Positions 20,973 to 32,333 of a stretch of DNA of 64,000 nucleotides are shown piece by piece. The stretch is from Abditibacterium sp. (GTDB lineage: Bacteria > Armatimonadota > Abditibacteriia > Abditibacteriales > Abditibacteriaceae), in contig CBDASK010000003.1 of NCBI GenBank assembly GCA_965199495.1, positions 4,032,001 to 4,096,000 of the forward strand. The letters run 5' to 3'. Position 1 is the first letter of the stretch. Each line of letters opens with the position of its first letter. The notes beneath the pieces were generated by a model. That model saw nothing but the letters and a program-made list of their open reading frames with translations. It was not told where the DNA came from and did not search any database. Position numbers and translations under genes: made by a program.

Positions 20973-22451
20973 TTGTCCCCTCGTTTTTCCGCACAAAGCG
21001 TGCTTTTTGTCGTGCTTTGTTGCGCCTTTCCCGCGTCGGCTCAGATAGCAGCCACTTCGCCCGCGACTTCGCCCGCTTCGCCGCAAAATCCCGTTGCGCT
21101 CGATGAATTAATCGCGCGCGCACTGCAAAATAATCCGCAACCGCAAATCGCCGCCGCCAACCTCGAAGCGGCGCGCGCCCGCGCCAGTTCTGCGCGCGCG
21201 CCTATAGGCCCGACACTGCAAATTGTGCCCGGCATCGGTGGCAAGGCACAATCGCGCGATGAAGAAATTTTGCTCTCGCAACCGATAGATTTATTCGGCC
21301 AGCGTCGCGCCGCGCGCCGCGTTTTTGACGCACAACTGAGCGGCGCACAGGCGCAACGCGACGGCGCTATGCGCGCATTAGTTATCGCGGTGAAAAACGC
21401 CGCCGCTGAACTGTTCGCGGCACAAGAGTCCGAGTCGTTGGGACGGGCGCAACTCGAAATCGCGCAACAATTTCGCGATGCCGCAGCGCGTCGCGCGCAA
21501 CTGGGCGAAGTGCCCGCCGTGCAAACGCAGCGCGCGCAACTCGAACTCGACCGCGCCTCCATCGAACTCGACGCCGCCATCGCACAACGCGCGATTCGCC
21601 GCGTTCGATTAAATCAACTCATCGGCGCCGCGCCGCAAGCGCCGCTTATTGTCGCGTTGCCCGAAATTTCGTTCGGCGACATCGGGCCACTTGCGGCCCC
21701 TTCCATTTCCGAAGCTCCGACGAACTCTTCGTCATCGGAAAGCGCGAATCTAAATCCCGAAATCGTGCCCGCTTCATCGCAGGTCGGCACTGATTTGGTC
21801 GCCACGCGCGCGGCTCTTTTGCCGGGCGCCCTGCAACGTCCCGATGTTTTATCGGCGCGATCGGCGGTTGAGGTGGCGCGCGCTCAGGCCAACGCGATTG
21901 CCGCACAAAGACGACCGCAACTCGAAATTCAGGCGCGACGCGGCGGAGTCTTCGATGGGGCTTCGACTTCGCTGCGCGCTGTTTTGACGGTTCCACTTTT
22001 CGGTTTGGGCGCCAACCGCAATCAGCAACGCGCCGCCGAATTTGAAGCGCAAGCCGGAGAAAAACAGCTCGAATTGTTGCGCTCGCAGGTCGCTACGCAA
22101 TTGGAAAGCGCGCTAATTTCGCTCCATCAAAGCCGCGTTGTGGTCGCGCGTTATCGCGATTCCATTTTGCCACAGACGCTCGATTTATTGCGCAAAACCC
22201 AGATCGGTTACGCGGCGGGCGCCTCGACTTATCTCGAAGTTTTGGAAGCGCAACGCGCGACTAAACAAGTTCAAACCGAATATTTGCAAGCGTTGGCGGG
22301 CGTAAGGTCGGGCGAAGCCAATCTGGAAAATGCGCTCGGCGCGGATTACGTTGTGCCGTCGGGCGCAGTCAATAACCCCGAAATTTTGGCCGTGCCCCCC
22401 GGCGTGGCTGCATTGGGGACAGTGCCAAATGATTTGGTGCCGGAAAACTAA
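20973..22451 (+). CDS. czcC: TolC/CzcC family outer membrane efflux protein
   Basis: signal peptide; ALQNNP, QRPDV--AR, Y-AG-STYLEVLEAQR; TTG start with AAGGAG. Confidence 0.85.
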   Translation: MSPRFSAQSVLFVVLCCAFPASAQIAATSPATSPASPQNPVALDELIARALQNNPQPQIAAANLEAARARASSARAPIGPTLQIVPGIGGKAQSRDEEILLSQPIDLFGQRRAARRVFDAQLSGAQAQRDGAMRALVIAVKNAAAELFAAQESESLGRAQLEIAQQFRDAAARRAQLGEVPAVQTQRAQLELDRASIELDAAIAQRAIRRVRLNQLIGAAPQAPLIVALPEISFGDIGPLAAPSISEAPTNSSSSESANLNPEIVPASSQVGTDLVATRAALLPGALQRPDVLSARSAVEVARAQANAIAAQRRPQLEIQARRGGVFDGASTSLRAVLTVPLFGLGANRNQQRAAEFEAQAGEKQLELLRSQVATQLESALISLHQSRVVVARYRDSILPQTLDLLRKTQIGYAAGASTYLEVLEAQRATKQVQTEYLQALAGVRSGEANLENALGADYVVPSGAVNNPEILAVPPGVAALGTVPNDLVPEN

Positions 22452-22515
22452 GTGTGATAATGCAAGCGAATAAATTCGCGGCTACCAATTAATTTCTAAC
22501 TCCTATCAAATAATC

Positions 22516-24567
22516 ATGTTTAAATCATTTCTGCGCGCCACCCTTGTCGGCGCCAGCCTAATTTTCGTCATCGGCGGTTGCCAACCTAAACCGCCCGTCG
22601 AAACAGCGCACGCCGAAGGCGATGAACACGCGGAAGACGAACACTCCGAAGAAAGCCACAAAGAAGGCGAAGATCACGCGACCGAGGCGATTCATTTCGA
22701 GGGCGATGGCGCCCAGAAAGCGGGTATTTCCATCCAAACCATCACGGCGACGCCGCTCGTCACGGGCATTCCGGTGAGTGGCTCGATTGAAGCCAGCCCC
22801 AACCGCGTGGCCAATGTGTCTTCGATTGTGTCGGGGCGTATTGTCCAGCTCAACGTCGTCGCTGGCGAATCCGTGGACAAAGGCGATGTTTTGGCGATCA
22901 TCGAAAGTCGCGGCGTCGGCGAGGCGCAAGCCGCATTTGCAAGTGCGACGGCACGCTTGCAAAACGCGCGTTCCAATTTGCGCATTATTGAGTCGCAAGC
23001 GCGCGTGGGCGTCTATTCGCGCGCACCGCTCGAAAGTGCGCGCGCCCGCCTCAACGATTCCAGCGCCGATGTCAACACTGCGCGCACTGCGCTCAATACG
23101 GCGAGCGCAACTCAGCGTAATGTGAGTCAACAGGTGAGCGCGGGCAGTTTTGCTTCGCCCGCCATCGAAAATGCGCGGCGCGAAAAAGCTGCCGCTGATG
23201 CCGCGCTCAAAAGCGCGCGGGCCGAACTTTCGAGCGCGCAATCGAGCGTGAAATCTGCCGAATCCGAACTGGCGCGCCGCCGCGCTGTTGCGAGCGGCGG
23301 CGGTTATGGCGCGCGCGCCGCGCAAGTCGCCGCGCGCGATTTGGCGGCGGCACAAGCCGCGCGCGATGCCGCGCAAAGCGAAGTCGAAACCGCGCGTTCC
23401 AACCTCACGCGCGCGACGAAATTGGAAGCCGAAGGTCTGGTTTCGACGCGCGATTTGGAGTTGGCGCGCACGGCTTTAGAAAACGCGCAAGCGAAATTAG
23501 CCAGCGCGCGCGCCGAAATCGAGAGTGCGCAAGCCGAAGCCACGCGCCAAACGAAATTGTCGCAATCGAACGCGACTGGCAACGCTGAAATCGCCGCCGC
23601 CCAGACCGCTTTGACGAGCGCCCAATCCGCCGTGGCTGCTCGCCGCGCCGAGATCGAACGCGCGGGGCGCAATCTCAATTTGGCAGAAATCGCTTTGAAG
23701 CGCGAGGACGTAATTTTGCGCGCGGGCGTGGCCAACCGCCGCGAAACCGTCGGCGCGCGAAGCGCCGTTTCGTCCGCACAAACCGCGCTCAAACGCGCGC
23801 AGACGGCACAGCAAATCGCGCAAACGGTTTACAATCGCGAAGAGAAAATTTATCGTCAGAATCTGAACAATCAATCGCAGATCCAAACGGCGCGCGCGCA
23901 ACTCGTCAGCGCGCAAAGCGACGCCGATGGCGCGCGCACCGCGCTCCAATTGCTGCGCAGCGCGCCCGGTGGGAATGCGCGCGTGCCGATTCGCGCGCCG
24001 ATTGCTGGCGTAATCACCGAGCGCAACGCGGCGCTTGGCGAAGTTTTGAATGACGATACGCATCTGCTGACGATCTCGGATTTGTCGGTCGTTCACGCGG
24101 ATATGTTCGTGCCCGAACGCGAAATCGCTCGTGTGCAAATCGGTTCGCCCGTCGAAATTCGCGCCGACGCTGTGCCCAACCGCGTTTATCAGACTCGCAT
24201 CGAACTGATTCACAAAACGCTCGACCCCAAAACGCGCACAGTCGAAGTTCACGGCGAAATTGATAACGCCGACGGCCAATTGCGTTTGGGCATGGCGCTC
24301 AATGCGACGATTCAAAGCGGCGCGCAATCGCAATTGGGACTGCGCGTTCCGACCGAAGCGATTCAAGAATTCGAGGGCGAAAAAGTCGTCTTCATGCCTG
24401 CCGATGAGCCGAATACGTTCGTGAAACGCCCCGTCGAGATAGGAGCCACGGCGGGCGGCATGACTTTAATTAAAAGTGGTTTGTCGAGCGGCGATAAGGT
24501 CGTGGTGAAGGGCGCGTTCATGGTCAAGGCGCAGACGATGAAAGCGGAATTGGGGCACGAGGATTAG
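22516..24567 (+). CDS. czcB: RND periplasmic adaptor (CzcB-like) with very long coiled coil
   Basis: lipobox IGGC; His/Glu-rich N-terminus; GESVDKGDVL, IRAPIAGVI, LDPKTRTV, GL--GDKVVVKGAF. Confidence 0.85.
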   Translation: MFKSFLRATLVGASLIFVIGGCQPKPPVETAHAEGDEHAEDEHSEESHKEGEDHATEAIHFEGDGAQKAGISIQTITATPLVTGIPVSGSIEASPNRVANVSSIVSGRIVQLNVVAGESVDKGDVLAIIESRGVGEAQAAFASATARLQNARSNLRIIESQARVGVYSRAPLESARARLNDSSADVNTARTALNTASATQRNVSQQVSAGSFASPAIENARREKAAADAALKSARAELSSAQSSVKSAESELARRRAVASGGGYGARAAQVAARDLAAAQAARDAAQSEVETARSNLTRATKLEAEGLVSTRDLELARTALENAQAKLASARAEIESAQAEATRQTKLSQSNATGNAEIAAAQTALTSAQSAVAARRAEIERAGRNLNLAEIALKREDVILRAGVANRRETVGARSAVSSAQTALKRAQTAQQIAQTVYNREEKIYRQNLNNQSQIQTARAQLVSAQSDADGARTALQLLRSAPGGNARVPIRAPIAGVITERNAALGEVLNDDTHLLTISDLSVVHADMFVPEREIARVQIGSPVEIRADAVPNRVYQTRIELIHKTLDPKTRTVEVHGEIDNADGQLRLGMALNATIQSGAQSQLGLRVPTEAIQEFEGEKVVFMPADEPNTFVKRPVEIGATAGGMTLIKSGLSSGDKVVVKGAFMVKAQTMKAELGHED

Positions 24568-24581
24568 TTTCTGTTTCCGTG

Positions 24582-24838
24582 CGGCAACATGGAAGTTTGA
24601 GGCGGCTATGACTCACACCCCCTCTGCCTTCGCACTGCCCTGGTTCCACCGGGCGCCCACCCCCTCCGAGAGGCGGAGAGCGCCGAAGTAACTTTCGCCG
24701 CGTTGTATTAGTAAGAAAGCTCCGAAACGTCCGAGGCATTCTTCCCCTCTCGGAGGGGGGTGGGCGCCCGGTGGAACCAGGGCAGTGCGAAGGCAGAGGG
24801 GGTGTGGGTAAAAGCCGCTTCAAAATGCCATTTTGCCG
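24582..24838. repeat. long palindromic element (CCCCCTC/GAGGGGG family), copy 1
   Basis: arms ACTCACACCCCCTCTGCCTTCGCACTGCCC...GGGCAGTGCGAAGGCAGAGGGGGTGTGGGT (core 24611-24809); second copy at 56658. Confidence 0.9.
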
Positions 24839-24877
24839 AATGGTTCGCTCACTTCATCCTTAAAGGCCAAAAAATAA

Positions 24878-27800
24878 ATGATTAACACTCTCATCCGGTT
24901 CTCCATCCGAAACCGATTTTTCGTCGTGCTACTCGCGCTCGCACTTTTGGCGGGCGGCATTTACAGCGCCTTCAAACTGCCGATTGATGCCATTCCCGAT
25001 GTCACCAACAAGCAGGTGCAAATCAACACCGTCGTCGCGGGACTCGCGCCGCCCGAAGTTGAACAACAGGTCACGTTTCCGCTCGAAGTCGCGCTCGCCG
25101 GAATGCCAAAGCTCGTCGAAACACGCTCGATTTCGCAATTCGGTTTGTCCCAAGTCACGGTGATTTTCGAGGACAACGTCGATATTTACTTCGCGCGCCA
25201 ACTCGTTTTCGAGCGATTGCAAAGCGCCCGTGACGATTTGCCCGCCGGAGCGCAGCCCGAAATGGGGCCGGTCTCGACGGGTTTAGGCGAAATTTATTAC
25301 TTGTTCCTCGAAGGCCCGCAAACCTTGGAAGAGCGCCGCACTTTGATGGATTTCACCGTGAAGCCGCAACTGCGCACCGTGCCCGGTTTGAGCGAAGTCA
25401 ATACGTGGGGCGGGCAGGCCAAACAGTATCAAATCGTCGCCGACCCGCAGAAATTGGCGGCGCGCGGCCTGACGATTCGCGATTTGACCGAGGCGGTTGA
25501 GCGCAACAATCAAAACGCGGGCGGCGGCGTTTTGCACACGGGCGATGAGCAAGAATTCGTGCGCGGCGTCGGCAGAATCCAATCTATCGGCGACATCGAG
25601 AATATCGTCGTCAAAGCGCAGGGTGGCGTGGGGGTGTTCGTGCGCGATGTGGCGACGGTGAAAACCGGCGGCCAACCGCGTCAAGGCGCCGTCACGCGCA
25701 ATGGCAAAGGCGAAGCGGTGACGGGAATCACCATGCTTTTGCTGGGCGAAAACGGGCGCGTTGTCGTGGATGCGGTGAAAGATCGCGTCGAGAAAATTCA
25801 GAAAACGCTGCCCAAAGGCACTAAATTAGTGGGCGAACTCGACCGCAGCGATTTGATTAAACGCACCCTGGCAACCGCGATTCGCAATCTCGCCGAGGGT
25901 GGATTGTTAGTCATCGGCGTGCTGTTTCTGTTTTTGCTGCAACTGCGCGCAGGCCTCATCGTTTCGAGCGCGATTCCGCTCGCCATGCTTTTCGCCATTA
26001 TCGGCATGAACTACTTTGGCGTGAGCGCCAATTTGATGAGTCTGGGCGCGGTTGATTTCGGTTTGATCGTGGACGGCGCCGTCATTATCGTCGAAAATAT
26101 CGTGCGAAGATTAGCCGAATCGCGCCACCATCTGGGGCGGGACTTGACCGAAACCGAACGATTGGACGAGATATTCGAGGGCGCCGTCGAAGTGCGCCAA
26201 TCCTCACAATTCGGCGAAATGATCATCATCGCGGCGTATTTGCCGATTCTATCGCTGGTCGGCATCGAAGGCAAAATGTTCAAACCGATGGGCTTGGTCG
26301 TCATCATGGCGCTCGTTGGCGCATTGATATTATCAATGACGGTGATTCCGGCGTTGTGCGCGTATTTTCTCAAAGCGGCGCCCGAACGCGAATCGCCGGT
26401 TGTCAAAGTCGCTTCCAAATTTTACGCGCCCAGTTTAAATTGGGTTTTGGGACATCGCTGGCCCGTTGTTGGTGGCGCGGTCGTATTTATCGCGTTGTGC
26501 GCGTCGCTGTTCCCGCGCTTGGGGTCGGAATTCATCCCGCAATTGGACGAAGGCTCGATGGCGATTCAGATCGCTTATCCGCCTTCGATGTCCATCGAAT
26601 ATGCAGCCACGCGCGCGACGGCGTTCGAGAAAAAATTGCTGGCTGAGTTTCCCAACGAGATCAACACGGTCTTCACGCGCATTGGGCGCGCCGAAGTCGC
26701 CACCGATCCGATGTTGCCGTCGCAGCAAGATATGATTATCACGCTCAAGCCGCAGAGCGGGTGGAGCAGGGCGAAATCGAAAGACGAGTTGGTGGGCGAA
26801 ATGGCCGAAGTCGCCGAGAAAATGCCGGGCATGGGCGCTTCGATGGCGCAACCGATTCAGATGCGCATGAACGAACTCATCGAAGGCGTCGGTATCCGCA
26901 GCGAATTGGGCATCGAGCTTTACGGCGACGACTTAACTATTCTGGCGCAAAAAGGCGCCGAAATCGGCAAAGTGTTGCGCACCGTTCCCGGCAACGCCGA
27001 CGTGGCTGTCGAGACGACCGAAGGTTTGCCGGTTCTCAACATTGACATCCGCCGCGACGCCGTCGCGCGCTATGGCATCAACGTCGCCGATGTGCAACAC
27101 ACGATTCAAGCCGCCATTGGCGGCGAAGAAGTCGGCGAAGTCATCAAGGGCAACGCGCGTTTCCCGATTGCCGTGCGCCTGGAAGAACGCTTTCGCCGCG
27201 ATCCCGAAGCCATCGCGCGCATCGAAATTCCCGCGCCCGATGGCTCGACTGTCGCGCTGGGCCAACTCGCTTCGATCCAATCCACGCAAGGCCCAGTGCA
27301 GATTTCGCGCGAAAATGGCAGTCGTCGCGTCGTGATTCAGGCCAACATGCGCGGGCGCGATTTGGGTTCGTTTGTCGAGGAAGCGCGTGCCAAAATCGAG
27401 CGCGAAGTTTCGCTTGCTCCCGGTTATCGCGTCGAATACGGCGGCACTTACGAGAAGTTGCAGAGCGGGCGCGCGCGTTTGGCGCTCATCGTTCCGGCGA
27501 CGTTCGGGATTATCTTCATCCTGCTATTCACTACTTTTGGCAGCGTGAAACAGGCGATTTTGGTCTTCACCGGCATTCCGTTCGCCATCACCGGCGGCAT
27601 TCTGGCGCTGATGATGCGCGGCATTCCGTTCTCGATGAGCGCGGCTGTGGGATTCATTGCCCTCTTCGGCGTGGCCGTGTTGAACGGATTGGTTCTGGTC
27701 AGCTTCATCAACCAACTGCGCGCGCGTGGTGAAAGCGTGCGCGATGCGGTCGAAAAAGGTTGCGCACTGCGTTTGCGCCCGGTTCTGATGACGGCGGCAG

Positions 27801-27979
27801 TCGCTTCGATTGGCTTTTTACCGATGGCGCTGGGCCACGGCGCGGGCGCCGAAGTGCAACGGCCATTAGCAACCGTGGTCATCGGCGGATTATTGACTTC
27901 AACACTTTTGACGTTATATGTTTTGCCGGTTTTGTATTTGTGGTTCGAGCGCGATGGTAAATCGGAAAATTTGACTTAA
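24878..27979 (+). CDS. czcA: CusA/CzcA heavy-metal efflux RND transporter
   Basis: LPIDAIPDVT, ANLMSLGAVDFGLIVDGAVIIVEN, GIEGKMFKPM, RLRPVLMTA, GAEVQRPLATVVIGG. Confidence 0.96.
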   Translation: MINTLIRFSIRNRFFVVLLALALLAGGIYSAFKLPIDAIPDVTNKQVQINTVVAGLAPPEVEQQVTFPLEVALAGMPKLVETRSISQFGLSQVTVIFEDNVDIYFARQLVFERLQSARDDLPAGAQPEMGPVSTGLGEIYYLFLEGPQTLEERRTLMDFTVKPQLRTVPGLSEVNTWGGQAKQYQIVADPQKLAARGLTIRDLTEAVERNNQNAGGGVLHTGDEQEFVRGVGRIQSIGDIENIVVKAQGGVGVFVRDVATVKTGGQPRQGAVTRNGKGEAVTGITMLLLGENGRVVVDAVKDRVEKIQKTLPKGTKLVGELDRSDLIKRTLATAIRNLAEGGLLVIGVLFLFLLQLRAGLIVSSAIPLAMLFAIIGMNYFGVSANLMSLGAVDFGLIVDGAVIIVENIVRRLAESRHHLGRDLTETERLDEIFEGAVEVRQSSQFGEMIIIAAYLPILSLVGIEGKMFKPMGLVVIMALVGALILSMTVIPALCAYFLKAAPERESPVVKVASKFYAPSLNWVLGHRWPVVGGAVVFIALCASLFPRLGSEFIPQLDEGSMAIQIAYPPSMSIEYAATRATAFEKKLLAEFPNEINTVFTRIGRAEVATDPMLPSQQDMIITLKPQSGWSRAKSKDELVGEMAEVAEKMPGMGASMAQPIQMRMNELIEGVGIRSELGIELYGDDLTILAQKGAEIGKVLRTVPGNADVAVETTEGLPVLNIDIRRDAVARYGINVADVQHTIQAAIGGEEVGEVIKGNARFPIAVRLEERFRRDPEAIARIEIPAPDGSTVALGQLASIQSTQGPVQISRENGSRRVVIQANMRGRDLGSFVEEARAKIEREVSLAPGYRVEYGGTYEKLQSGRARLALIVPATFGIIFILLFTTFGSVKQAILVFTGIPFAITGGILALMMRGIPFSMSAAVGFIALFGVAVLNGLVLVSFINQLRARGESVRDAVEKGCALRLRPVLMTAAVASIGFLPMALGHGAGAEVQRPLATVVIGGLLTSTLLTLYVLPVLYLWFERDGKSENLT

Positions 27980-27991
27980 ACTACGATTCCA

Positions 27992-29278
27992 ATGAATACC
28001 AAACCCACGCTATGGAACCGTTTCTGCGCCAGCGCGACCGGCGAAGTTTCCGCCGATACGCTCGAAGCCTATCGCCGCGCCAGCCTCGCGGTTTACGATG
28101 CGCTCGAACATTCCGAAACGCACCGCGCGGGCGCCAAAGCAGATGGCAAAAACGCCTGGACTTTGCCCAAATCCACGCAGGCCGAAATGCTCTGCACCTG
28201 GAACGCGTTCGTTTTGCAAACGCTGGGCGACCGCTTTCTGGACGCCGATTACGAAGGCGATCCGCACACCGTCGGGTTCGTGCCAGCGATTACGTCCGAT
28301 CAGATTTTGAGTTTTTATACCCAAGTCGAAGGCTGGCTCAACCGCGCGCAACAGGCGCACTTCAATCCCGACTATAAACTCGACGTATCTGTGCCCGCCG
28401 CCTTGCCCGCGTGGAGCGAAGTCGAGCCGTGTCCCAACGCGCATTTAGTCGGAATGCTCGAAGCGATGCGCGCCGTGCGCGATCACACCGAAGCGGCGAT
28501 TTTGTTCCTCCAAGATTCGCCCGCACAGACCGACGAACAAACCAAAAACGCCAACCAGATTCGCCAAGTTCACGCGTCGGCCCAAACCAAAGCGCGCTAT
28601 GCCGAAGATATGATGAACGGCAGCAATCCGACGCGCGATGTGCATGAACGCGTCGAGGAACACGTCAAAGAAGCGGTCGAAAGTTATTATTTGCTGGGCC
28701 AATTATTGGCGATGCCCGAACTGGCGAACAATGTTTTGAATCCGCCGAAACCACTGCCGCTACCAGCCACGCCGCCTTTGTCGCCGCCTTCGCCGTTTTA
28801 CGCGCCGTCGCCCAATCAATTCGCGCCACAAAACGCGCAATTGGCGTTGCCCAACTCGCCCGATTTCGATATGTGGTGCCTGACGGCGCCCGAAGCGCAA
28901 AGCAAATTTGCGCAAGACCGCGAAGCGGTGCGCGCGATTAAAACGTTGTGGCAACTCGATCCCGATCCGCGCCGCACCGTTGAAATTCAAAGCGAAATTA
29001 ATGCGGCCTTGGCGCGCGGCGAAATCGGTTATGCGAGCGACCAATGGGGCAAAAAGTTGGGCCATTTTTTCTGCGCGCCGTGGGGCAGCGTTTACCTTGC
29101 CAAACGCCCAGTGACAATCGGCGGCACACGCATGATGACGATGCAACAATTCATCTTCAACGTAACGTGCGAAGGCGTTAATCTGGGCGCGCCCTTCGAG
29201 CGCGAAATTATGACGGGCAATTTCACGCCGACCTCAAAATTTGAATACGGCGACCCCAACGAAGCGCCCGATCATTGA
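27992..29278 (+). CDS. hypothetical protein
   Basis: 428-aa ORF with host-like codon usage, 12 bp after czcA; Pro-rich linker. Confidence 0.8.
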   Translation: MNTKPTLWNRFCASATGEVSADTLEAYRRASLAVYDALEHSETHRAGAKADGKNAWTLPKSTQAEMLCTWNAFVLQTLGDRFLDADYEGDPHTVGFVPAITSDQILSFYTQVEGWLNRAQQAHFNPDYKLDVSVPAALPAWSEVEPCPNAHLVGMLEAMRAVRDHTEAAILFLQDSPAQTDEQTKNANQIRQVHASAQTKARYAEDMMNGSNPTRDVHERVEEHVKEAVESYYLLGQLLAMPELANNVLNPPKPLPLPATPPLSPPSPFYAPSPNQFAPQNAQLALPNSPDFDMWCLTAPEAQSKFAQDREAVRAIKTLWQLDPDPRRTVEIQSEINAALARGEIGYASDQWGKKLGHFFCAPWGSVYLAKRPVTIGGTRMMTMQQFIFNVTCEGVNLGAPFEREIMTGNFTPTSKFEYGDPNEAPDH

Positions 29279-29302
29279 TAAATTTGCGGTAAGATATGGT
29301 GT

Positions 29303-29377
29303 GAAGTTCGGTCGTCCAACGGAAAGACACCCGCCTCTCACGCGGGGGATGCAGGTTCAAATCCCGCCCGAACTTCG
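29303..29377 (+). tRNA. tRNA-Glu(CTC)-like, atypical
   Basis: acceptor (GA)AGTTCGG/CCGAACT(TC); D-arm GTC..GAC; CCCGC-CTCTCAC-GCGGG; T-arm GCAGG-TTCAAAT-CCCGC with one mismatch. Confidence 0.8.
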
Positions 29378-29382
29378 CATTT

Positions 29383-29458
29383 GGAAGTCGTCGTCTAACG
29401 GAAAGACTCCGGTCTCCAGAACCGAAGAATGAAGGTTCAAATCCTTCCGACTTCCACC
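29383..29458 (+). tRNA. tRNA-Trp(CCA)-like, atypical
   Basis: acceptor GGAAGTCG/CGACTTCC then ACC; CCGGT-CTCCAGA-ACCGA; GAAGG-TTCAAAT-CCTTC. Confidence 0.8.
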
Positions 29459-29463
29459 GTTAT

Positions 29464-29540
29464 GAAAAGCCGTAGCTCAATGGAAGAGCGCCTGAATTGC
29501 ATTCAGGAAATGTGGGTTCAAGTCCCGTCGGCTTTTCACC
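29464..29540 (+). tRNA. tRNA-Ala(TGC)-like, atypical
   Basis: acceptor GAAAAGCCG/CGGCTTTTC then ACC; TAGCTCAATGGAAGAGC; CCTGA-ATTGCAT-TCAGG; GTGGG-TTCAAGT-CCCGT; lacks G3:U70. Confidence 0.78.
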
Positions 29541-30879: not shown

Positions 30880-31001
30880 TTTAGTCACAAAGGACTACAA
30901 AGAAGCTGGAGGAAATTTGGAATACGAAGAAAATGCTTTCTTGCTCACTTGAAAATTTCCTCCAGCTTCTTTGTAGTCCTTTGTGCCCCTTTGTGGCTAA
31001 A
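30880..31001. repeat. palindromic CACAAAG/CACAGAG-type repeat
   Basis: CACAAAGGACTACAAAGAAGCTGGAGGAAATTT ... AAATTTCCTCCAGCTTCTTTGTAGTCCTTTGTG. Confidence 0.85.
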
Positions 31002-32154: not shown

Positions 32155-32165
32155 TTTTCTTTTTT

Positions 32166-32259
32166 GTAGAGACACCGAATTATCGTGTCTAAAACGTATC
32201 GCCTTTCCGAACCTTATGGCGACTCTAATATTTTGGACACGATAAATCGGTGTCTCTAC
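32166..32259. repeat. GTAG-type REP doublet (REPIN-like), copy 1
   Basis: GTAGAGACACCGAATTATCGTGTCT ... GGACACGATAAATCGGTGTCTCTAC. Confidence 0.9.
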
Positions 32260-32333
32260 GGAAGAACTCGCATCACGAAAGAGAGTCGAGAACTTTTTGT
32301 GCCCGTCGCCCCATCCAACTTTAAGAATTGCCC

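Follow-up and report, generated by a model that had tools for sequence, protein, structure and literature searches.

The window, a stretch of 64,000 nucleotides from an Abditibacterium sp. genome (contig CBDASK010000003.1, positions 4,032,001 to 4,096,000 of the forward strand), contains three tandem tRNA-like genes followed by the genes of an SDR-fold oxidoreductase and a leucine-rich-repeat (LRR) protein (Table 1). Three tRNAs were called on the + strand at 29305-29537 by ARAGORN and by Rfam (RF00005, 52-63 bits), in agreement with the CTC, CCA and TGC cloverleaves that a sequence-only reading of this DNA had drawn; Rfam placed them in the generic tRNA family alone and in no specific family. 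All three have the D/T elbow of the cloverleaf, a 7-nt anticodon loop, U33 and a purine at position 37, and they are separated by 3 and 5 nt, counted past the 3-nt tails.

Table 1. The tRNA-like array and the two genes behind it (window coordinates)
Feature	Positions	Strand	Description
-10-like hexamer TAAGAT	29290..29295	+	7 nt before the first paired base of RNA 1
tRNA-like RNA 1	29303..29379	+	anticodon CTC (29337-29339), Glu-type loop; 9-bp acceptor stem (29303-29311 with 29368-29376), extra pairs A-1:U73 and G-2:C74; tail GCA
tRNA-like RNA 2	29383..29458	+	anticodon CCA (29416-29418), Trp-type loop; Glu-style D-stem; 8-bp acceptor stem (29383-29390 with 29448-29455), G-1:C73; tail ACC
tRNA-like RNA 3	29464..29540	+	anticodon TGC (29498-29500), Ala-type loop with A32-U38; 9-bp acceptor stem (29464-29472 with 29529-29537), A-1:U73; tail ACC
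SDR-fold oxidoreductase, 443 aa	29545..30876	+	Pfam adh_short, alignment, structure model
Long inverted repeat	30890..30983		intergenic, SDR to LRR
LRR_6 leucine-rich-repeat protein, 381 aa	31009..32154	+	ribonuclease-inhibitor/NLRP-class fold

The over-long acceptor stems that had been claimed (9 bp/GCA, 8 bp/ACC and 9 bp/ACC) could be read directly from the sequence. The claimed 5-bp T-stems are present in each RNA, though the CTC RNA has one A.C mismatch and the TGC RNA two G.U pairs. Position 73 pairs with -1 in all three genes, none of which has a 7-bp stem with an unpaired N73; G-1:C73 is found in RNA 2 only, the pair being A-1:U73 in RNAs 1 and 3. On the gene, RNA 2 is of the 8/5 type and RNAs 1 and 3 are of the 9/5 type, with variable loops of 4-5 nt. 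In the precursor of each RNA further U-A or U.G pairs are possible beyond the stem.

Ordinary Glu-CTC, Ala-TGC and three Trp-CCA genes are present elsewhere in the genome. The window RNAs are therefore surplus and not the sole copies of their isoacceptors; BLAST of the genome found no second copy of them. Alanine tRNAs are identified by G3:U70 and tryptophan tRNAs by G73, rules that the housekeeping tRNAs of this genome fit. The window RNAs lack these cognate elements, as the sequence-only reading had noticed: the Ala-anticodon RNA has A3:U70, against G3:U70 in the three ordinary housekeeping Ala tRNAs, and C73 of the Trp-anticodon RNA is paired to G-1, against G73 in 3/3 other Trp tRNAs. A second surplus tRNA set lies outside the window at C3:1551680-1552003 (Gln-TTG, Asn-GTT and two Leu, TAA and CAA); both Leu genes are without the long variable arm, as is typical of tRNA arrays. 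Further odd tRNA genes were seen at C3:4263025 (Trp), 4284143 (TTA anticodon call), 4309188 (Tyr, Ser) and 4621966 (Ile-TAT), and at C2:14987.

The ATG of the SDR gene lies 4 nt past the ACC tail of RNA 3, with no purine-rich ribosome-binding site. The protein begins with a basic helix followed by a CxxC...CxxC zinc ribbon. Its structure model (pLDDT 86.9) has the classical SDR fold, at 14-21% identity to solved SDRs; the Rossmann fold is there and the catalytic Ser...YxxxK set is not complete, Thr352 replacing the catalytic Tyr of classical SDRs (HPxTNMxK). Alignment revealed Thr for Tyr throughout this SDR family, in both of its clades. The basic helix was considered as a sign of tRNA binding and rejected: its mean charge is +5.5 in proteins with RNAs (68 proteins) and +8.2 in those without (83), and helix and HPHTNM motif are equally strong in the clade without RNAs. 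Among the matches of the LRR model (pLDDT 90.5) are ciliary LRR proteins as well as the LRRs of NLRPs and ribonuclease inhibitors, and the fold is thus no proof of RNase binding. Streptomyces homologs, which carry the name 'gala protein', align with it end to end. Neither protein matched any family of the PADLOC 2.0 defence library; in NCBIfam there was no model for the LRR protein, and the SDR hit only generic SDR models, below their cut-offs.

A 428-aa gene just upstream of the promoter (window 27992-29278), which belongs to a 10-member 90% cluster in metagenomes, matched nothing in Pfam, NCBIfam or PADLOC and had no homolog among loci L002-L030; it was for these reasons left out of the system. 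Palindromic intergenic repeats, REP- or MITE-like, lie at 32157-32266 and 24570-24877 (181 and 30 genome BLAST hits, including self). An ordinary RND efflux cluster occupies 20973-27979: a HlyD/CusB adaptor, an ACR_tran pump and the ORF of a putative outer-membrane factor.

Acceptor helices are selected to be 8-12 bp

We compared 125 distinct members of the family with housekeeping controls of this genome, 54 of its 66 ARAGORN calls (His included; the 12 left out comprise the three window RNAs, among others). The Watson-Crick stem measured 7 bp in 23 members, 8 bp in 47, 9 bp in 31 and at least 10 bp in 24; the respective control numbers were 46, 6, 2 and 0. A Watson-Crick pair -1:73 is present in 102/125 members (shuffle mean 54, maximum 69; related genomes are not independent, and kinship inflates this and all other shuffle comparisons, so that these figures are overstated) and in 8/54 housekeeping tRNAs. 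The pair is G:C in 70 members, C:G in 21, U:A in 6 and A:U in 5. Because it varies in this way, it is the pairing that is kept and not a His determinant.

Covariation of the extra pairs in relatives, which the sequence-only reading had proposed as a check, was seen. In 22 Abditibacteriaceae RNAs -1:73 is paired in 22, -2:74 in 13 and -3:75 in 6, with compensatory changes. The actinobacterial set comprised 111 elements after removal of 44 with bulges or mismatches; -1:73 is paired in 106 of them, -2:74 in 93 and -3:75 in 80, all above every shuffle, and just 20/111 have CCA at 74-76. An ACC remnant stands at 74 in 22/101 non-actinobacterial members (at 73 in 2) and at 76 in 10/24 actinobacterial ones. 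Since stems of at least 8 bp occur in just 8/54 housekeeping tRNAs and -1:73 forms in 22/22 family-level relatives, the long stems of the window RNAs are not chance.

The promoter follows the stem. A sigma-70 scan of the window promoter gave no full promoter and no -35 partner for TAAGAT; in relatives TAAAAT keeps the same spacing. From the -10 hexamer to the canonical +1 the distance is 8 nt as the mode (15/101) in non-actinobacterial members and 9-10 nt (19/24; mode 10) in actinobacterial ones, whereas the hexamer lies 7 nt before the first paired base in both the 8-bp and the 10-bp types. Promoter spacing thus moves with stem length across phyla, and the earlier suggestion that the TAAGAT box sets a start near the first stem gained weight: across phyla the -10 position predicts a start at the first paired base. 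As the hexamer and the ACC remnant both shift with stem length, we infer that the transcripts are leaderless and begin within the stem, the predicted start of RNA 1 being 29303.

Member anticodons are mostly those of Ala, Gly, Trp, Glu, Asp, Arg and Ser(GCU). In 202 loops C is found at 35 or 36 in 193, a purine at 37 in 187 and C33 in 107, and base 34 is evenly distributed; the C35/C36 bias could reflect descent from few ancestors. The 7-nt loop is intact in 93/125 members, and 36/152 actinobacterial arms are not 17 nt long. Of the 83 non-actinobacterial members with intact loops, 47 share bases 32, 37 and 38 with a housekeeping tRNA that has the same 35-36 (shuffle mean 22, maximum 34). The other end of the molecule behaves differently: N73, 1:72 and 3:70 tell no more about the anticodon than shuffled data do (fractions 0.07-0.11), in contrast to 53 housekeeping tRNAs (at most 0.0003), and G3:U70 is present in 1/27 Ala-anticodon members. 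The anticodon loops are therefore copies of housekeeping loops, set on an acceptor end that bears no relation to the anticodon.

Operon linkage and spread

The sequence-only reading had treated the trio by itself and overlooked that the RNAs open a conserved operon whose downstream genes encode the SDR and the LRR protein. A DNA search found similar arrays in six relatives, each directly upstream of the same SDR and with many other anticodons; ATC is among those of close relatives. SDR, LRR and RNA arrays co-occur in the same 7/27 genomes of the family Abditibacteriaceae. For R1, an RNA model derived from the Abditibacteriaceae sequences, the top hits are its own training set, and ordinary tRNAs are hit as well; the five next-best hits that were fetched were ordinary 7-bp tRNAs (four from genomes without SDR/LRR, one elsewhere in a carrier).

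Starting from the LRR protein, 80 loci were kept from 574 matches; 6 were too short, and 68 of the 74 evaluable ones have a tRNA-like element on the same strand, no more than 1.2 kb upstream, while 357 kb of downstream sequence contained 0. The 80 loci belong to Armatimonadota, Pseudomonadota, Actinomycetota, Planctomycetota, Bacteroidota, Cyanobacteriota, Acidobacteriota, Chloroflexota and Myxococcota. Starting from 108 distinct SDR proteins, we found RNAs plus LRR in 20 loci, RNAs only in 8 (2 of these, L074 and L080, are false positives due to housekeeping Leu tRNAs), neither in 73, and 7 that could not be evaluated. LRR without RNAs did not occur, RNAs being present in 20/20 loci with LRR; the true RNAs-only loci include SAR324 and Parabeggiatoa. 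In the SDR tree RNAs plus LRR mark one large clade, with some losses.

The actinobacterial D-arm pattern yielded 126 loci, 80 with flanks (six locus pairs overlap): SDR or LRR is nearby in 42/80 and, counting the ankyrin-repeat gene, in 56/80, and the elements are alone in 24/80. Actinobacterial loci often continue with a MoxR ATPase gene and a DUF2201 vWA gene, and the elements are repeated before individual genes. The element scanner missed some degenerate elements, two of which (L273, L294) were seen by eye. Taken together, these surveys show a conserved operon of a promoter, 1-9 tRNA-like genes, SDR and LRR, to which actinobacteria add an ankyrin protein, the MoxR ATPase and the DUF2201 vWA protein; the arrangement recurs in about ten phyla.

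Two sequence marks were tried as probes for the family and rejected. The GGAA D-loop (87/125 members, 0/54 controls) is common in phage and array tRNAs; the T-arm could be scored in 58 of 80 full metagenome loci with this loop, and SDR/LRR followed in 4, all of them among the 20 with stems of 8 or more bp (4/20) and none among the 38 with 7 bp (0/38). Beside viral GGAA tRNAs SDR/LRR was found in 0/54 scorable loci (of 66). The non-actinobacterial D-arm pattern proved unspecific; the actinobacterial one had no occurrence in viral contigs.

Several loci deviate from the usual arrangement. A metagenome array at L392:2355-2626 consists of Trp-CCA, Ala-GGC and Glu-CTC long-stem RNAs and is nearly the window trio; a convergent gene lies downstream, and there is no SDR/LRR within 2.4 kb. 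In L030 (2292-3362) and L031 (1593-2537 and 2845-3807) RNA arrays are split by genes which, by language-model features, resemble rolling-circle replication initiators; as a lead, this suggests a small element integrated within the array. In L141, L155, L161, L162 and about 20 more Streptomyces loci the element stands alone, with no conserved neighbours; this variant is strongly conserved, its acceptor helix is bulged and about 12 bp long, and its loop is of the Ala type. Ahead of a cyanobacterial SDR-LRR pair in L294 (about 2480-2900), the place of the usual elements is taken by two differing tRNA-like repeats whose variable arm is long and whose T-loop is altered. In another genome of the family, a complete array of ordinary tRNA genes (11 within 2.7 kb) lies at L533:540-3210, and L534 has a similar one.

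In cyanobacteria the leaders carry a regulatory box. The exact TrcR 8-mer TGTAGTAT was present in 8 of 15 leader windows of 60 nt (9 within one mismatch; 16 loci, close kin), against a background of 0.0023 per leader window, and 5/6 windows without the box are filled by a preceding element that the scanner missed. TrcR represses translation-stress genes: rtcB, rsgA, rimK and the trn operon (PMC10272220). The box points to a link with translational stress for the cyanobacterial copies, and for those only; the Streptomyces copy is reported to be constitutive. TrcR is described as cyanobacterial, and no TGTAGTAT box was seen in the window's own promoter region.

Possible functions of the RNAs

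We give an even chance to the reading that the window RNAs are non-translating mimics of anticodon loops, decoys or sensors which work with the SDR and LRR proteins and come from the front of a translation-stress operon. Transcription would start at the first paired base of the RNA 1 stem, and RNase P would cut out the inner copies, with G-1:C73 redirecting the cut and leaving 8 bp; a shifted cut at G-1:C73 is on record (PMC5499578). The mature RNAs would keep a displaced 3′ end and be poorly handled by cognate synthetases and by EF-Tu, whose binding is lowered by the 8-bp stem of tRNA-Sec (PMC7609411). In the form that we favour, a guess and by itself unlikely, the loops would bait anticodon-reading enzymes that attack tRNA in translational stress (ribotoxins or modifying toxins), the LRR protein would do the binding and the SDR would supply an NAD(P)-dependent output. 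It is possible, if rather doubtful, that the whole family is an undescribed cross-phylum RNA-protein stress or conflict system, in which arrays of leaderless, long-stemmed decoys present a range of housekeeping anticodon loops to detect or sequester toxins that target tRNA, the ribonuclease-inhibitor-like LRR protein being the receptor and the atypical SDR the effector, and that Streptomyces tRNA-Asp-AUC is a misread member acting via stress signalling.

That tRNA provides the strongest counter-evidence to the mimic reading. It was reported to improve 6xGAT eGFP fluorescence (microscopy), to raise antibiotic production and to reduce aerial hyphae, an effect lessened by A34G and obtained in a host without the partner genes, which a pure decoy does not explain (PMC9262613). 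The sequence-only reading, mimics or mischarged tRNAs, had named the right pair of options, both of them candidates, given also this reported gain in GAU translation. A stringent-type response is also expected to cause precocious antibiotic production, but it would not account for the reporter gain. Other observations weigh on the same side. A 7-bp reading of the actinobacterial elements gives G73-C-C, a plausible Asp end (C-1:G73 in 75/111), and loops with 35-36 constrained, 34 free and a purine at 37 (187/202) follow a decoding pattern too. The stems with A-1:U73 and G-2:C74 in the window may be trimmed to 7 bp, because E. coli RNase P cuts several precursors canonically despite two possible extra pairs (PMC5499578). 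Neither SDR nor LRR matched the defence library, the basic helix and HPHTNM of the SDR are no weaker where RNAs are lacking, and partner genes are not nearby in 24/80 actinobacterial loci and in L392. Members may differ in function, the actinobacterial G73-CC type perhaps lying nearer to decoding.

The main rival, which we consider doubtful, holds that the RNAs are stress-induced decoders: RNase P and 3′ trimming would produce 7- or 8-bp tRNAs, charged by host synthetases, partly with a non-cognate amino acid (e.g. His via G-1:C73), which would read G-containing codons under stress, the extra pairs only gating maturation. The reporter and A34G data speak for it, as does the accumulation of tRNA-Asp-AUC as a small RNA (48,557 reads, reported constitutive) at the level of tRNA-Asp-GUC; the available text of that paper, however, describes no charging assay or end mapping and contains 0 occurrences of 'aminoacyl' and 'acceptor stem' (PMC9262613). 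Irregular tRNAs with G-1 are charged by E. coli HisRS, yet inserted no His in E. coli (PMC5389517). An operon of real stress tRNAs is also under TrcR (PMC10272220). The loops fit decoding, with 7 nt intact in 93/125, a 32/37/38 context matched to the isotype, C at 35 or 36 in 193/202 with a free wobble base, and U33 and purine 37 in all three window RNAs, but the majority of loops have C33 and anticodon stems are broken in actinobacteria. Against decoding stand also the identity positions uncoupled from the anticodon, the variation of -1:73 among G:C, C:G, A:U and U:A, where pairing rather than a His determinant is kept, and the ACC remnant placed after the long stem.

We judge it improbable that the tRNA fold is a cis-acting leader, a processing or stability element of the SDR-LRR mRNA, whose cleavage would free the start codon or alter mRNA decay and so tie the operon to tRNA-processing capacity or tRNA damage. 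In its favour, almost every element has a gene downstream of it, single actinobacterial genes are each preceded by a copy, and the SDR ATG follows the ACC tail by 4 nt without a purine-rich site. On the other side, arrays have up to 8-9 copies with different and constrained anticodons, conserved standalone copies occur in 24/80 loci, the intact orphan trio faces a convergent gene, one copy lies downstream of an LRR gene (L121), and the Streptomyces member works in trans (PMC9262613). Functionless drift of relics or integration-site tRNAs of a mobile cassette seems more improbable still. It would agree with the patchy distribution (7/27 family genomes), with the GGAA D-loop common in phage and array tRNAs, with the Rep-like gene that splits two arrays (a lead only) and with the ancestral integrative element proposed for tRNA-Asp-AUC (PMC9262613). 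It is opposed by compensatory changes throughout the stems, extra pairs included, by promoter spacing that tracks stem length, by linkage kept across about ten phyla and by the absence of SDR/LRR beside all 54 viral-contig tRNAs examined.

In many bacteria tRNA scanners label such genes as ordinary tRNAs for Ala, Trp, Glu or Asp. Should they prove to be mimics, they would belong, together with two orphan proteins, to a widespread tRNA-based module of stress response or defence, and the mechanism of a published antibiotic-yield tool would need re-examination. If they are decoders, a natural tRNA family with the anticodon uncoupled from the acceptor end would mean stress-induced mistranslation across phyla, and would offer candidate orthogonal tRNA bodies.

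Comparison with known systems

A literature search, with most subscription journals outside its reach, turned up one member of the family, published under a narrower reading. It turned up no account of the family as such, of its long stems, of the link to the SDR or of the SDR-LRR operon in about ten phyla. The known member, Streptomyces tRNA-Asp-AUC (Chen et al. 2022), was described as a GAU decoder confined to 32 genomes, with no homologs elsewhere (PMC9262613). Its primer core matches 9 of our loci, and the Table S1 sequences are the element before the LRR gene in L183/L314; the downstream genes are the same, gala LRR, 'PE-PGRS' (the ankyrin gene here), MoxR and hypothetical genes (PMC9262613). 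It was published as a normal 7-bp tRNA, and the 10-bp stem, the other anticodons, the SDR and the wide spread are unmentioned in the available text (PMC9262613). The window shares with it the element directly upstream of a gala-type LRR operon, the paired -1:73 and the longer helix; it has CTC, CCA and TGC in intact loops on 8-9-bp stems, and no AUC decoding GAU. With R1 the L314 element reaches 35.8 bits, a score that ordinary tRNAs attain as well, so the kinship between window and Streptomyces rests on context and structure more than on sequence.

In the TrcR-repressed trn operon of Anabaena surplus tRNA genes likewise stand behind a TGTAGTAT-box promoter, a likeness limited to the cyanobacterial members (PMC10272220). 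These genes are described as tRNAs for cognate amino acids, and no SDR or LRR gene is among the 23 of Table 1 of that paper (PMC10272220).

Mukai et al. described 8/4 and 9/3 allo-tRNAs and polycistronic irregular tRNAs with G-1 (PMC5389517). They resemble our family in being surplus genes with diverse anticodons on a shared body and longer acceptor stems, some of them polycistronic, and differ in the 12-bp 8/4 or 9/3 fold, the long variable arm or GGU anticodons, and the neighbourhood of toxin-antitoxin genes (PMC5389517). Our family, compared with the text of that work, is 8/5 to 12/5, has short variable loops and no GGU among the tallied anticodons, and is tied to SDR-LRR. The window RNAs differ accordingly from allo-tRNAs, with 5-bp T-stems, 13-14 bp in all and variable loops of 4-5 nt.

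With tRNA-His and tRNA-Sec the family shares the eighth pair, and G-1:C73, present in 70/125 members, is expected to redirect RNase P (PMC5499578). The window RNAs have neither the UCA anticodon nor the long variable arm of tRNA-Sec. Members of the family differ from both tRNAs in lacking a GUG anticodon, a long arm and a SelB link, in stems that are often longer than 8 bp and in the ACC remnant that follows the stem.
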